Origin: Octopus vulgaris
Taxonomy: Eukaryota
NCBI GenBank assembly: GCA_951406725.2
Contig: OX597828.1
Coordinates: forward strand, 22,196,001 to 22,260,000
Direction of reading: 5' to 3'
DNA length: 64,000 nt
Shown here: positions 17,110-24,933 of the stretch, piece by piece
Position numbering within the stretch: the first letter of the stretch is position 1
How the letters are laid out: the number at the start of each line of letters is the position of its first letter
Program-made: the position numbers and the translations under genes
The notes under the pieces: generated by a model
Seen by the model: only the letters and a program-made list of their open reading frames with translations
What the model was told of the DNA's origin: nothing
Databases searched by the model: none

Positions 17110-18320
17110 TTCCAGATACTCTATCTTCTAATTAGCCTTAAGATTAAATTAAATAACGTTTAATATTGATACCGTCAAATTAGCCTTAGGATTAAATTAA
17201 ATAATGTTTAATATTGTTTAATATTGTTAATAATTATTGTTAATTAGCCTTAAGATTAAATTAAATAACGTTTAATATTGTTTTAATATTGTTAATAATT
17301 TTTCAGATACTCTATCTTCTAATTAGCCCTAAGATTAAATTAAATAACGTTTAATATTAATAACGTCTAATTAGCCTTAGGATTAAATTAAATAACGTTT
17401 AATATTGTTAATAATTATTGTTAATTAGCCTTAGGATTAAATTAAATAACGTTTAATATTGTTTAATATTGTTAATAATTACTGTTAATTAGTCTTAAGA
17501 TTAAATTAAATAACGTTTAATATTGTTTAATATTGTTAATAATTATTGTTAATTAGCCTTAGGATTAAATTAAATAACGTTTAATATTGTTTAATATTGT
17601 TAATAATTATTGTTAATTAGCCTTAAGATTAAATTAAATAACGTTTAATATTGTTTTAATATTGTTAATAATTCTTCAGATACTCTATCTTCTAATTAGC
17701 CTTAAGATTAAATTAAATAACGTTTAATATTACCCACACTCTAATATAATATTAACATTGCTAATATATTTTCAGATACTCTATCTCCTGATTAGCCTTA
17801 AGATTAAATAACGTTTTTATCTACACTCTAATATAATATTAATATTGCTAATACATTTTCAGATACTCTATCTTCTAATTAGCCTTAAGATTAAATTAAA
17901 TAACGTTTAATATTAATAACGTCTAATTAGCCTTAAGATTAAATTAAATAACGTTTAATATTACCCACACTCTAATATAATATTAATATTGCTAATATAT
18001 TTTCAGATACTCTATCTCCAAATTAGCCTTAAGATTAAATAACGTTTTTTTTTTTTTTTTTTTTTTTACCCACACTCTAATATAATATTAATATTGCTAA
18101 TATATTTTCAGATACTCTATCTCCTAATTAGCCTTAAGATTAAACAACGTTTTTATCCACACTCTAATATAATATTAATATTGCTAATACATTTTCAGAT
18201 ACTCTATCCCCTAATTAGCCTTAAGATTAAATAACGTTTTTACCCAAATAACGTTTTTACACAAACTTTAATATTGTTAATATTTCTTTTTCAAGTACTC
18301 TATCTTCTAATTAGCCTTAA
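17110..18320 (+). repeat. AT-rich tandem array in the LINE 5' region (~16-17 units, ~45-110 bp period)
   Basis: Recurrent core taattagccttaagattaaattaaataacgttt with variable modules (aatattgtttaatattgttaataatt; cccacactctaatataatattaatattgc; ttttcagatactctatct). Confidence 0.9.
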
Positions 18321-18381
18321 TATCTTCCTGTCTTCTCTCGAACATAATTAGATAGATAAACGGATAGACGGATTATCCAGC

Positions 18382-19293
18382 ATGTCCAGAGCATGGAGAC
18401 GTGACGAGCTGGATTTATTCGTACGAGCATGGGAGTGCGCCGGCGGAGATAGCCCTAGCGAGGTGATTGCGGCTGCACTGAAGAGCAGAGGCTACAAGAG
18501 GACGGCGGCTCAGATGGAGCGAAAGAGACAGGAATTCGTGCGCTCATATGCGCTTGTACGGTCGCACATTGGCGCACTTGATGCCATCTTTGAGAACGAG
18601 CGGGGCAAAGATGGCAAGAATGGAGACGATGAAAGAAGTCACCCCCACCTGGTGGACGCCCGGGAGGAGGTTTTGAATGAGAAACCTGCCCGGGAAGTGA
18701 ACCCAGGTGCAAGTTCTCCAACCGGCAGCAAGGGCCATGGAGACGGAGAACCCGGTGAAGAGGTAGAGGGAGGAAGAAGAACTAAAAGAAGGACTGGAAG
18801 AGCTAAAGGAAAAGAAAAAGCTCAAGCAGGACCAAAGAGTGAAACAACCAGAAATAGAAGTGGAACCGCAAAGGATGGAACCAAACAGCGCACACGGGTG
18901 TGTATGTTCTACCTGAGAGGTTCCTGCTGGCATGGAAAGGAAGGTGCAGGCTGCCGCTTTGCACATCGGGGACCCTGCCACAGAGACACGAGGCAGATGG
19001 ACAAACCATCAACACAAAGAAAAGGGATGGACCACGCACCACCTGCCCCAAAGCGGAGGTACGCAGATGTTGTGCGCGCCACAAACAGCCAACATGATGT
19101 TGTCGAAAGAGCAGCTGCTGAGCAACAATCTTTTTTGTGCATGGCACAAAAGATTGTACAGCAGCTGACCTGGCTTCATCAAACCCAAGCCCGCAGGTGG
19201 GACTACCCACTATATACCAGACCACCACAGCAAACAGACACAGGATGGACACCGCCGGCAACAACGTACACCTCACCTCGATACTCCTACTGA
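18382..19293 (+). CDS. LINE ORF1 protein (303 aa) with an N-terminal Myb/SANT(trihelix)-like domain and a CCCH zinc finger
   Basis: WRRDELDLFVRAW...IAAALKSRGYKRTAAQMERKRQEF resembles Myb/SANT-like DNA-binding domains. CMFYLRGSCWHGKEGAGCRFAH is C-x7-C-x8-C-x3-H. It lies directly upstream of ORF2 and overlaps it. Confidence 0.8.
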   Translation: MSRAWRRDELDLFVRAWECAGGDSPSEVIAAALKSRGYKRTAAQMERKRQEFVRSYALVRSHIGALDAIFENERGKDGKNGDDERSHPHLVDAREEVLNEKPAREVNPGASSPTGSKGHGDGEPGEEVEGGRRTKRRTGRAKGKEKAQAGPKSETTRNRSGTAKDGTKQRTRVCMFYLRGSCWHGKEGAGCRFAHRGPCHRDTRQMDKPSTQRKGMDHAPPAPKRRYADVVRATNSQHDVVERAAAEQQSFLCMAQKIVQQLTWLHQTQARRWDYPLYTRPPQQTDTGWTPPATTYTSPRYSY

Positions 19294-22162
19294 ACATCAG
19301 AGGACTGCAAACACTCAGTAACAGGACAAAGATCCCGTTCCTGAGAGACTTTATTGCATGCAATCAAGCCATATGCATAGCACTTACAGAAACGCACCTG
19401 AAACCGGACATAGCAGATGCGGAGTTACACATACCACAGTATGCTGTACTACGGACCGACAGGAAAGAAAGGAGTCATGGAGGTGTTGCTATGTACATCC
19501 GTGAGGACCTCACACCCCAGGTCCTCTTGTCATACGCAAACTCGGTGTGTGACACACTAATTGTACATATTAAGCAACTTGATGTAGTTGTGTGTGCTAC
19601 ATATCGCCCTCCAGATGCCCCAAGCCATGTGGGCAAGTTTGAAGACTGCCTTATAAAAATAGAAGAAATTCTAACCACATTAGAACAACACATAGGTGTG
19701 CTTCTTATGGGAAACTTCAATCTGCCCAATGTCAGATGGCCCGAGGGCCTTTCTCTCCCAGGAATGACAAGATGTGAACGAGGACAGGCGAGGTCCCTCC
19801 TGAACCTCATCAACACCCTGTACATGGAGCAGGTAATACTCCAACCAACCAGGGCAGGTAACACACTGGATCTCTGCTTCACAAATGACATGGATCTCAT
19901 CCATAATGTGAAAGTGACACCGACACTACTCTCGGATCACAACATGATAGAGCTGACCATGTACGGGCCAAAAGAGAGCACGGACATGCAGCCTACAAGA
20001 AACCCTCAAAATCTTTCCAGCTTGAACTACCATAAGGCAAACTGGAAACAAATTGAGAAAGAGATCCTCAAACAAAACTGGCCTAAATGTCTCTCCTCGC
20101 CAGACATCGACGTGAAACTTCAACAATTCATGTCTGTAATGCAAGCCATATGCTACAAATGTGTCCCAGAGAGAAAGGCCACTGTACACAAGAACAAAAT
20201 CCCCAGAGAGAGGAAAATTTTAATGAGACGGCGTACGAAATTTTCAAATCGCCTAAACAAACAGATTGAAAGCAGTGAAAAGTCCCGCCTAAAAATAAAA
20301 CTGTTGGAAATCGAAAAATGTCTGCATCTCTCCCATGAAAAAGAAAGAGCAGACAAAGAAGCCTGGGCTATAGAAAACATAAAATCTAACCCCAGAGCTT
20401 TCTACAGGTATGCCAAAGAAACAGCTACAGTGCACTGTAGAATAGGGCCACTCCTCGAAAAGGAAGGCACACTTACAGGAAAACCAATGAGGATAAGTGA
20501 AATACTGAATGAGCAATTCAAGAGTGTTTTCACTCCACCCCTTGGGCATCTCCAAATCACCAATCCAACTGACTTTTTTACCACTGCAGATATAAAATCA
20601 GAGGCGGCGACGATAGATTACATCAATATAAAGGAAGACGATGTAACCAAGGCTATAGATGAAATGAAAACAGACTCAGCTACTGGCCCCGATGGATTCC
20701 CGGCAATCCTCCTAAAAGCATGTAAGAGAGTCCTAGCAAGACCACTGCAGTTCCTCTTTCAGAGCTTCCTTGCAGCTGGCAAACTTCCAGGAAAACTGAA
20801 GGAAGGTAAAATATGCCCCATTCATAAAGGAGGTAGCAGAGCGGAAGCCAAGAACTATAGACCTATCTCTCTGACCTCACACATCAGCAAGGTCATGGAA
20901 CGAATAGTCAGAAGGAAGCTGATCACCTTCCTTGAAGAGAATGACTTGCTGCCCGACACCCAACATGGTTTCCGACCAGGGAGAAGCTGTTTAACTCAGC
21001 TCCTACAACACTATGACTGGGTGCTGAAACGGCTGCTCAACCACTCAAATGTGGAAGTGATATATCTCGACTTTGCAAAGGCCTTTGATAAAGTCGATCA
21101 TGGAATGATATGTCACAAACTGCGTGATCTCAACATAGTTGGAAAACTGGGAGAATGGCTTCATGACTTTCTGAAGGATAGAAGTCAGGTGGTAGTAGCC
21201 AATGGGGCCACCTCCATTAACACACAAATAGTGAGCGGTGTTCCGCAGGGCACTGTTCTGGGACCACTACTGTTCATAATGGCCCTCTCAGACATGCCCT
21301 CAGCCACGCAGAGAGCCACGATCACAAGTTATGCAGACGATACAAAAGTTTCACAGGCAATACAGAACCCTGAGGACACTAAACACCTGCAATGTGAGCC
21401 GGACGAAATATACAAGTGGGCTAAAAACAATAGCATGCAGTTCAATGCTGGAAAGTTTCAAGCTTTATACTATCAGCATGCAAAACTGAATGCAATACCC
21501 AATGAATACACTGGACCCGGAGGGATTGCAATCCCAGAGGCACAATCAGTGCGTGACCTGGGTATTCACATGAGTGATGACGCGACCTTTCATGTACATG
21601 TTGCTAAACTGACAATGAAATGTAGACGGCTGGCTGGATGGATTCTTAGAACCTTTAGAACAAGAGAACAAGAAACCATGATGGTCCTCTGGAAGACACT
21701 TGTCCTAAGCCACTTTGACTATTGCTCTCAGCTATGGTCACCATCCAGTTGATCACAGAACTTGAGGCGATCCAACGAAGCTACACAAAGAAGATAGCCT
21801 CTATGCAGAATGTAAGCTACTGGGAAAGACTCAAGAGATTAAAATTATATTCCCTGGAGCGTAGGCGGGAAAGATATGCCATAATATACATCTGGAAGAT
21901 CCTGGAGGGAAGTGTCCTGAACTTTGGCATCGAGAGTTACGCAAATGCCAGAACTGGGCGCCACTGCGTGGTGCCTAGGACTCCAAACCTGCCATCAAGA
22001 TGTAGGACAAGATTCTGTGATAGCCTGGGCTTCCGAGGCCCACAGCTCTTCAATATCCTCCCGAAGAACCTGAGAGACCTGCATGAGGTGGATACAGATG
22101 TCTTTAAAATGAAGCTGGATCTCTTCCTGTCAGGTGTCCCAGATGAACCAACTTCACGGTAG
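19245..22162 (+). pseudogene. LINE ORF2 (AP endonuclease + reverse transcriptase), frameshifted near 21750
   Basis: EN motifs LNIRGL, LTETHL, YRPP, GNFN (normally GDFN), LDL and SDH; RT motifs NYRPISL, QHGF, YLDFAKAFD, GVPQG..LGP and YADD. The C-terminus (LYSLERRRERY) continues in another frame to 22162. First ATG is at 19245. Confidence 0.92.
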
Positions 22163-23120: not shown

Positions 23121-23123
<3 letters not shown>

Positions 23124-23420
23124 TATTATAAAAGGCAGATTTTAGTCTGCCTCCCTTTGGGAGTTATACAAATCTACAATATAGGATTTCTTCAATTACA
23201 ATTTACCTAGCATTTTTAAGAGTACAATGCATCGCGTCATGCCAGGTCCAGTTTTCAAAATTTAAACTCCAATTAAGCAAAATTTACAGAAAACTCACAT
23301 TCTGGTGTGTGTGTCAAATGCTTTTCTTAGTCTGGTTTACACCACACGCAAACGCACACACACAGTGGGCAACGAATAAAATGAAACTAATTCACTTACT
23401 GTAGTGAGTGATTCTTTCAC
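23121..23420 (+). mobile_element. Non-autonomous Helitron 5' segment
   Basis: Starts with TC after an A (tcttattataaaaggcagatttt) and is highly similar to 24934-25200. Confidence 0.75.
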
Positions 23421-23824
23421 TCTGCCTCCCACTTCCTCTTTCCACACATAGACACGCAAATATATACATAAAATTGTAAGCTAACGTACGTGTGTGTCAG
23501 TGTGTGTGTGTGTGTGTGTGCGCGTGTGTGTGTGTGTGAGGGTGCGTGTGTGTGTGTGTGTGTGCGTGTGCGTGAGTGTGTGACAGGAAAGTTTTTTACG
23601 ACGAATATAACACCTATATCCATGTAGCAGAAAGATAAGACAGTAAGGTGTGATTTGAGGGATATTTGGCTGCTATTTCTACCATGTCTAGCTGCCATGT
23701 AGGGGTCTCCCTCATAGGCTCATACACACATACATACATAGATAAGACAGTAAGGTGTGATTTGGGGGAAATTTTGCTGCTATTTCTACCAGGTCTAGCT
23801 ACCATGTAGAGGTCCCCCTCAATT

Positions 23825-24035
23825 CTTTTATTCTTCTGCTTTTTCCAGCCATTGGTCTGTGGCGATGCTGGGGCAATGCCTTGAAGAACTGTAGTTTAAT
23901 GAATCAACTCCAGTTTTATTTTTGTAAGCATTGTACTTATTCTATCTGTTTCCTTTGTCAAACCACTAGGTGACAGGGATGTAAACAAACCAACATTCGT
24001 TGTCAAGCAGTGGTGGAGGACAATCACAAGCACAG
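23825..24035 (-). mobile_element. SINE family A, 3' fragment
   Basis: gatgctggggcaatgcc...acttattctatc...gtaaacaaaccaacattcgttgtcaagc is the reverse complement of the family A body and tail. Confidence 0.6.
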
Positions 24036-24120
24036 ACACGCACACACACACACATACATGCATGCACATATACACACATACATACATACATACATATATA
24101 TATATGTGTGTATATATATA

Positions 24121-24445
24121 TTGCAGCGTGGAAGGTGTTTGTAAGCCATTTAAGAAACACACAAAAACCGTTACATTCACTTCAACATTTAAATTTAATT
24201 TGCCAAAATATTTTCGTCGCTTTGAGACCGCGACCTGTTCACTGACAAAAATATCGTGCTAACAGGTCGCGGTCTCAAAGCGACGAAAATATTTTGACAA
24301 ATTAAATTTAAATGTTGAAGTGAATCTAACGGTTTTTGTGTGTTTCTTAAATGGCTTATAAACACCTTCAACGCTGCAACTGTTTTCGTTCCAGCACACG
24401 ATCTCAGATCAAGTCACTTGCTATGCAAGTACATCTCTGTAACTA
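24121..24445. mobile_element. PLE-derived fold-back element (~120-bp arms at 24121-24239 and 24261-24379)
   Basis: Near-perfect inverted repeat flanked by TA tracts. A deleted copy lies at 49733-49850. Confidence 0.8.
24198..24249 (-). ncRNA. Hammerhead-like motif with G3-C8 swapped core
   Basis: Minus strand: tttgtca-GTGAACA-G-GTCGC-ggtctcaaa-GCGAC-GAAAATATTT-tggcaaa. Stems I and II pair and stem III is the palindrome AATATT. Confidence 0.65.
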
Positions 24446-24539
24446 TATATATATTTATATATATATATATGTATATTGGTAAAAACAGTAAGATAACAAA
24501 AGAAAGAAAGAGACCTCAATATTATGTAAATAGAGGAAA

Positions 24540-24933
24540 TCTTTATATATAAAAGTGAGGTTGTGTGTCTGTCTCGTACGATTTAGATTCCTAACTACTC
24601 CCACATTTTGCGGTGCAGTTTAACCAAAACCGGGTATCTTATAGTCGTGATTCATATCGAGACCGTCTGGGTATTAGCGCGCGTCTACGATGAGTCTACG
24701 ATTTAAAAAAAATTTACCATCAATTTTTCCCATTTTTAATCCATTTTTGACATATATAAGGGAAGTAACTCTCTAAAATTTATTATTAAATCTCAGAACG
24801 TAAAAAGCTACAGTAACACCCCTCCCCCTTTGTGGTTAGCCATATTGAGATGGCTATTATACTTTACATCTCTAAAAATGCTTATATAATTATTTCCCTT
24901 ACAAACCCGAGCAACGCCGGGCGATACTGCTAG
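24540..24933 (+). mobile_element. Short non-autonomous Helitron
   Basis: 5' TC after an A (tctttatatataaaagtgagg); 3' hairpin cccgagcaacgccggg followed by cgatactgCTAG. Confidence 0.8.

Follow-up and report, generated by a model that had tools for sequence, protein, structure and literature searches.

The question raised by this locus is whether a hammerhead-like motif whose core carries G3 and C8 in place of C3 and G8 is a natural, reciprocally swapped ribozyme. The motif lies on the minus strand of the window (the whole 64,000-nucleotide stretch of Octopus vulgaris contig OX597828.1 that was analysed), where direct reading of the letters confirmed it at 24249-24199. A preliminary description had parsed it as a G3-C8 hammerhead with a UUU triplet, intact in a 7-bp stem I and a 5-bp stem II; the minus-strand letters matched on each of these points, except that the edge placed at 24198 lies at 24199. 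The parts of the motif and of the repeats that enclose it are the following:

24199..24249, minus strand: minimal type I hammerhead-like motif with a G3-C8 core and UUU triplet
24249-24243, minus strand: stem I, 5' strand
24242-24236, minus strand: core G3 U4 G5 A6 A7 C8 A9
24235, minus strand: extra G between A9 and G10.1
24234-24230 with 24220-24216, minus strand: stem II, 5 Watson-Crick pairs
24215-24212, minus strand: GAAA
24211-24207, minus strand: helix III, 2-bp palindromic
24206, minus strand: U17, in the triplet UUU
between 24206 and 24205, minus strand: predicted cut of the motif
24205-24199, minus strand: stem I, 3' strand, 7 pairs, one of them G·U
24121..24260, minus strand: short, 5'-truncated pLTR copy of a Penelope-like element (PLE), older subfamily of family A, which holds the motif
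24149, minus strand: ATG, the first codons of the PLE ORF inside this pLTR copy
24261..24442, plus strand: inverted second pLTR arm, which begins within the core and is without G3-U4-G5
23121..24933, plus strand: non-autonomous Helitron-like carrier of 1.8 kb, with 5' TC and a 3' hairpin (24906-24921) followed by CTAG

The canonical-core letters C3 and G8 were replaced in the window motif by G3 and C8, between which a Watson-Crick pair (G-C) can form. U4 G5 A6, A9, G12 A13 A14, A15.1-U16.1 and an NUH triplet were all present, as were the traits of minimal hammerheads (min-HHRs), namely an extra nucleotide between 9 and 10.1, G10.1-C11.1 and a short palindromic helix III. With the motif folded alone, stems I and II formed the minimum-energy structure (z -2.5; 5/200 shuffles were as good). 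A descriptor in which positions 3 and 8 may form any Watson-Crick pair had a single match in the window, the 24249-24199 site, and matches in 0/60 dinucleotide shuffles. Rfam scans returned only miRNA-like hairpin noise, with no hammerhead model among 17 matches in 24130-24400 (E up to 10) and none among the best 150 of 360 matches listed.

PLE min-HHRs, as presented in the available text of PMC4209133, resemble the motif in their pLTR site, extra 9/10.1 nucleotide, G10.1-C11.1 and short palindromic helix III, and resemble family A in GAAA, the NUH site and the occurrence of both solo and opposite-strand paired copies. They differ in having C3-G8, G3 occurring in 0/56 representatives of Fig. 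S3; the extra nucleotide is G here, whereas the published consensus is H, one listed example having G. The motif is best described as a variant of PLE minimal hammerheads that lies outside the canonical-core letters. A search of the literature for a natural G3-C8 hammerhead found none and yielded U3-A8 alone; published variant lists may still hold one. Natural U3-A8 hammerheads (Schistosoma Cercyon PLEs; available parts of PMC4209133 and PMC3088659) are likewise changed at both members of the 3-8 tertiary pair, but U3-A8 amounts to two transitions and keeps a purine at 8, whereas family A has two transversions and a pyrimidine at 8.

Across the genome, the motif is a minimal type I hammerhead of PLE family A, located in the pLTR upstream of an ORF with RT and GIY-YIG. 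In copy L222 it preceded the ORF start by about 55 nt, and it was also found on the 3' side of GIY-YIG ORFs as long as 1025 aa. When the 5' transcript natural to L222 was folded, stems I and II formed with a probability of 0.7-1.0, and the palindromic helix III formed a self-duplex of -6.2 kcal/mol. The young subfamily has RT motifs, a CX3CxxC linker and open frames reaching 1025 aa. The single ORF combines RT with a C-terminal GIY-YIG (E 1.8e-5, above the cut-off); a Pfam RVT_1 search of the family A ORF gave no match, the RT motifs being read in the sequence, and homologues of the ORF are named as RT-domain proteins. A CX2-5CxxC linker stands ahead of the endonuclease, which according to the accessible part of PMC8557442 marks Neptune and Nematis PLEs, and by this linker family A was assigned to the Neptune/Nematis type jointly. 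EN+ PLEs of that type share with family A the single RT ORF, the CX3CxxC linker, the C-terminal GIY-YIG, (TA)n targets and inverted pLTRs with a tail (PMC8557442, same part). The pLTRs were found inverted or in partial tandem with a tail extension, and insertions ended at two places within the first ORF codons, from which the tail continued; such a tail signature is described for PLE insertions in the available text of PMC11167929. One PLE insertion (L170:1400-7900) contained a 1.8-kb inverted duplication of the 3' end, joined within the ORF.

In the window, the motif occupies one arm of an inverted repeat of 119 nt (24121-24239 against 24261-24379). The second arm is 97% complementary to 24121-24239 and runs 63 nt further as an extra 'tail' (24380-24442) of the PLE-insertion type. 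Both hammerhead stems had a pairing probability of 0.0 in a transcript of the whole repeat, and because of the 119-bp palindrome the window copy cannot form the hammerhead fold. The opposite arm (24261 onward) had been put forward as evidence that C8 is no single-arm lesion. C8 is indeed kept there, as is a perfect stem I 3' strand, but G3-U4-G5 is missing, and since both arms stem from one insertion event the C8 of this arm is not independent evidence. The enclosing element passed the terminal test for non-autonomous Helitrons (5' TC, 3' hairpin with CTRR, no target duplication, tandem copies), and on these terminal features we take 23121-24933 to be Helitron-like. All 40 scored genomic matches of a 266-base stretch were 100% identical, and the carrier flanks were identical in 30/30 of those matches read; the 40 copies were therefore rejected as consensus evidence. 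These twins are one pLTR insertion multiplied as DNA by the carrier and are uninformative on ribozyme selection, and the window copy itself is likely to be inert cargo. A same-strand pair 5 kb apart (L094) was rejected as a PLE, being two carrier copies.

Two Helitron-like elements stand head to tail in the window (23121-24933 and 24934-about 26017), the first of which also contains fragments of other repeats (23633-24050) and recurs in the genome as many near-identical copies. A LINE-like element with three frames occupies 18352-22162 on the plus strand, its 876-aa frame containing endonuclease and RVT_1 domains, and at 17178-18265 lies a complex, AT-rich tandem repeat whose nested periods range from 32 to 231 bases.

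The preliminary description had proposed a check of whether the swapped core is the consensus of genomic copies, and the outcome was affirmative. A 30-mer from stem II to helix III had 1971 exact matches in the 2.8-Gb genome, and the first 30 of these comprised 12 carrier-borne copies and 18 independent insertions, 14 of the latter with G3-C8. Genome-wide counts with fixed flanks gave 1848 copies with G3-C8, 118 with G3 and another letter at 8, and 75 with another letter at 3, which puts the swapped core in 1848/2041 matches (about nine of ten; exact fixed flanks, carrier-borne copies included). C3-G8 was found in 0 of the 2041. In the youngest lineage G3-C8 was present in 36/37 readable copies among 40 rows of the clade, and in their ORF DNA the copies of the young lineage span about 0.12 substitutions per site; loop II differs in the young subfamily, with the same G3-C8 core. 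Assembled contigs of four runs with four organism labels contained family A, with no other letter at positions 3 or 8 among the best 40 of 73 matches.

When old (95) and young (25) pLTR copies were compared, 0/42 hammerhead columns and 10/70 free columns had changed (p 0.013), 5 of the 10 free-column changes falling in loop II, where they may represent one or two events; with the loop II changes removed the figures were 0/42 and 5/61 (about 0.07 one-sided, by hand). In family A the remaining conserved letters of the core, the unpaired GAAA and U16.1 among them, were unchanged. Covariation within the family was rejected, the 75 non-G3 copies consisting of 71 with C8, 3 with A3-U8 and 1 with A3·A8, as decay predicts. 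Coding constraint on G3 and C8 was also rejected, the short frame over the motif varying between subfamilies (by eye).

The motif was compared with relatives elsewhere in the genome. A genome-wide search turned up three canonical hammerheads that agree with it in stem II, in stem I and in the extra G, and related PLE pLTRs had the stem I, extra G and stem II of family A together with C3-G8. Since these homologous pLTR hammerheads have C3-G8, both members of the pair have been altered, and the reciprocal change at 3 and 8 claimed in the preliminary description holds. A pattern excluding G3 and C8 gave 169 genomic matches against 22 in a reversed control, and 30 such matches read were divided among family A (7), an older family B (22) and one unrelated sequence. 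The 22 copies of family B (C3-G8 5, U3·G8 8, C3·A8 4, U3-A8 4, A3·G8 1) show the spread that would be expected of C3-G8 decaying by transitions, as seen with a pattern that is blind to G3-C8 copies of B. A 3-8 pair was retained in 9/9 rows of a hand-picked alignment (CG 7, GC 2). The swap is one evolutionary event, with no repeated covariation.

Seven of 33 loci tested aligned forward with the pLTR of a young sister family S, which has many intact open frames of 1312 aa; its ORF is 55% identical to that of family A. The ORF of a sister family matches, at 99% identity, a protein that bears the label Octopus vulgaris. In the core of family S, C replaces A9 in 15/15 copies (for example L241:1810-1900; L240-L243), and older relatives of family S have canonical cores.

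Copies with an unpaired G3·G8 core formed a distinct class. Among 100 non-C8 copies listed, position 8 was G in 41, T in 42 and A in 17, and the like transversion at position 3, G→C, was seen in 7/75 (against 41/100 for G8, p 2e-6); because G→C at position 3 is that rare, G3·G8 is too common to be accounted for by decay. G3·G8 was present on several subfamily backgrounds (L114-L133, L260-L279, L246, L184, L187) and in 2/100 long copies among those listed. Four inverted pairs had it in each arm and about seven in a single arm; a search of 40 more loci for a new long G8 copy found none. Since the long ORF-bearing copy L246 and the four inverted pairs carry G3·G8, unpaired cores were mobile. Two of three long G8 copies branched first in one tree (89/70, 90/94), the fork being open in another (AU p 0.109). 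G8 copies were not older (4.3% against 6.6% divergence, in sets sampled differently). The G3·G8 class may be an intermediate, a revertant or a hotspot.

The ends of inserted copies bear on whether and when cutting takes place. Copies that begin at the predicted cut were few, with no clear enrichment: the start lay within 2 nt of the cut in 8/16 matches, compared with 3/8 at a control site (p 0.11), and several starts near the cut were explained by microhomology; two internal duplications restart at the predicted cut. No tandem monomer arrays were found in the loci read. Short copies begin some 25 nt before the core (for example L057, L123, L131, L267), and 13/25 of those with AG at the start carry G where the element has C (p 7e-7), as we infer would follow from cap copying; the alternative is a splice junction, the upstream sequence being acceptor-like. 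This pattern suggests that solo pLTRs may be transcribed as capped RNAs and mobilised in a SINE-like manner. Almost all inserted copies derive from uncut RNA, and any cutting would thus be inefficient or late.

Rescue of activity by a double swap, to which the preliminary description had appealed, is described in print. In the available text of the papers concerned, a complete scan of pairwise mutants found C3G with G8C to be the sole double mutant of the core with strong rescue (PMC9901934); C3G/G8C also partly restored a 10^5-fold loss (PMC8495972) and partly rescued an Anolis PLE hammerhead, which cleaved only with protein (PMC11167929). The engineered mutants of these three studies have the letters of family A at 3 and 8; they were assayed and gave partial rescue, whereas the swap of family A arose in nature and is fixed throughout a mobile family. 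G3-C8 is reported to be less active with C17 (PMC3884650, available part); position 17 is U in family A, as it is in the canonical relatives.

On balance it seems somewhat probable that the family A motif is a G3-C8-swapped PLE minimal hammerhead that cuts slowly after U17, as a dimer or aided by protein. Transcription of the pLTR would begin at a capped start some 25 nt before the core, and two RNAs would pair through the palindromic helix III; cleavage after U17 would then be slow, probably confined to the dimer or to RNA assisted by the protein of the element, and would remove a short capped leader or split tandem transcripts. C8 would have been retained since it re-forms the pair through which nucleotide 8 is held in the active site, and the mobility of the element would be independent of cutting. 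A different account, possible though short of probable, is that the motif descends from a hammerhead under relaxed catalytic constraint, its stems serving protein binding, ORF translation or a DNA promoter while the core drifts, with the G3/C8 pair due to chance or retaining trace activity. The spread of sister family S with C9, the mobilisation of G3·G8 copies and the origin of insertions from uncut RNA all speak for such a descendant, and G3 makes TCAGT, a putative initiator-like word. The same account draws on the Anolis PLE, whose hammerhead was dispensable for insertion in vitro, mutants being without effect and no reads ending at the cut (PMC11167929, available text), and on Naiad PLEs, which proliferate without hammerheads (PMC8557442, available text). 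Against it, all other conserved core letters of family A, including GAAA and U16.1, are unchanged, and a random second core change would be G8C in only about 1/36 of cases (12 positions x 3 letters, uncorrected for the choice of this motif in the preliminary description).

An efficient ribozyme that determines where the mobile RNA starts, intact copies being due to circularisation or re-ligation, would agree with the eight copies that begin within 2 nt of the cut and with the two duplications that restart there. We consider it very unlikely, as short copies begin away from the cut, upstream of the core, tandem monomer arrays were absent from the loci read, and published minimal PLE hammerheads are slow in the accessible portion of PMC4209133. 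Still more improbable, to the point of being nearly negligible, is a fortuitous resemblance within a foldback DNA repeat that has no relation to hammerheads: the window copy does lie within a long inverted repeat of a DNA element and lacks an Rfam hammerhead match, but the pLTR position in RT and GIY-YIG elements, the alignment with canonical hammerheads of the same genome and the 0/60 result with shuffles contradict it. The interpretation of the motif as a swapped, active hammerhead is therefore partly supported, the G3·G8 excess and the A9→C change in the sister family making it less secure to conclude from a swapped pair that the ribozyme is active.

The benefit of PLE hammerheads to the element is described as an open question in the available parts of PMC8557442 and PMC11167929. 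For family A, searches that fix CUGANGA miss whole families, with about 1850 exact matches for one subfamily here, and G3-C8 across subfamilies, together with the G3·G8 copies and the A9→C relatives, provides a ready natural series of cores. That an active natural G3-C8 hammerhead was fixed in a recently active lineage, by way of a G3·G8 intermediate still present in the genome, is a tentative proposal that we hold to be rather unlikely; if true, the C9 core of the sister family would be a second working exception, and, the 3-8 pair being part of the active fold, its repair in nature would demonstrate selection for cutting on the hammerheads of PLEs.
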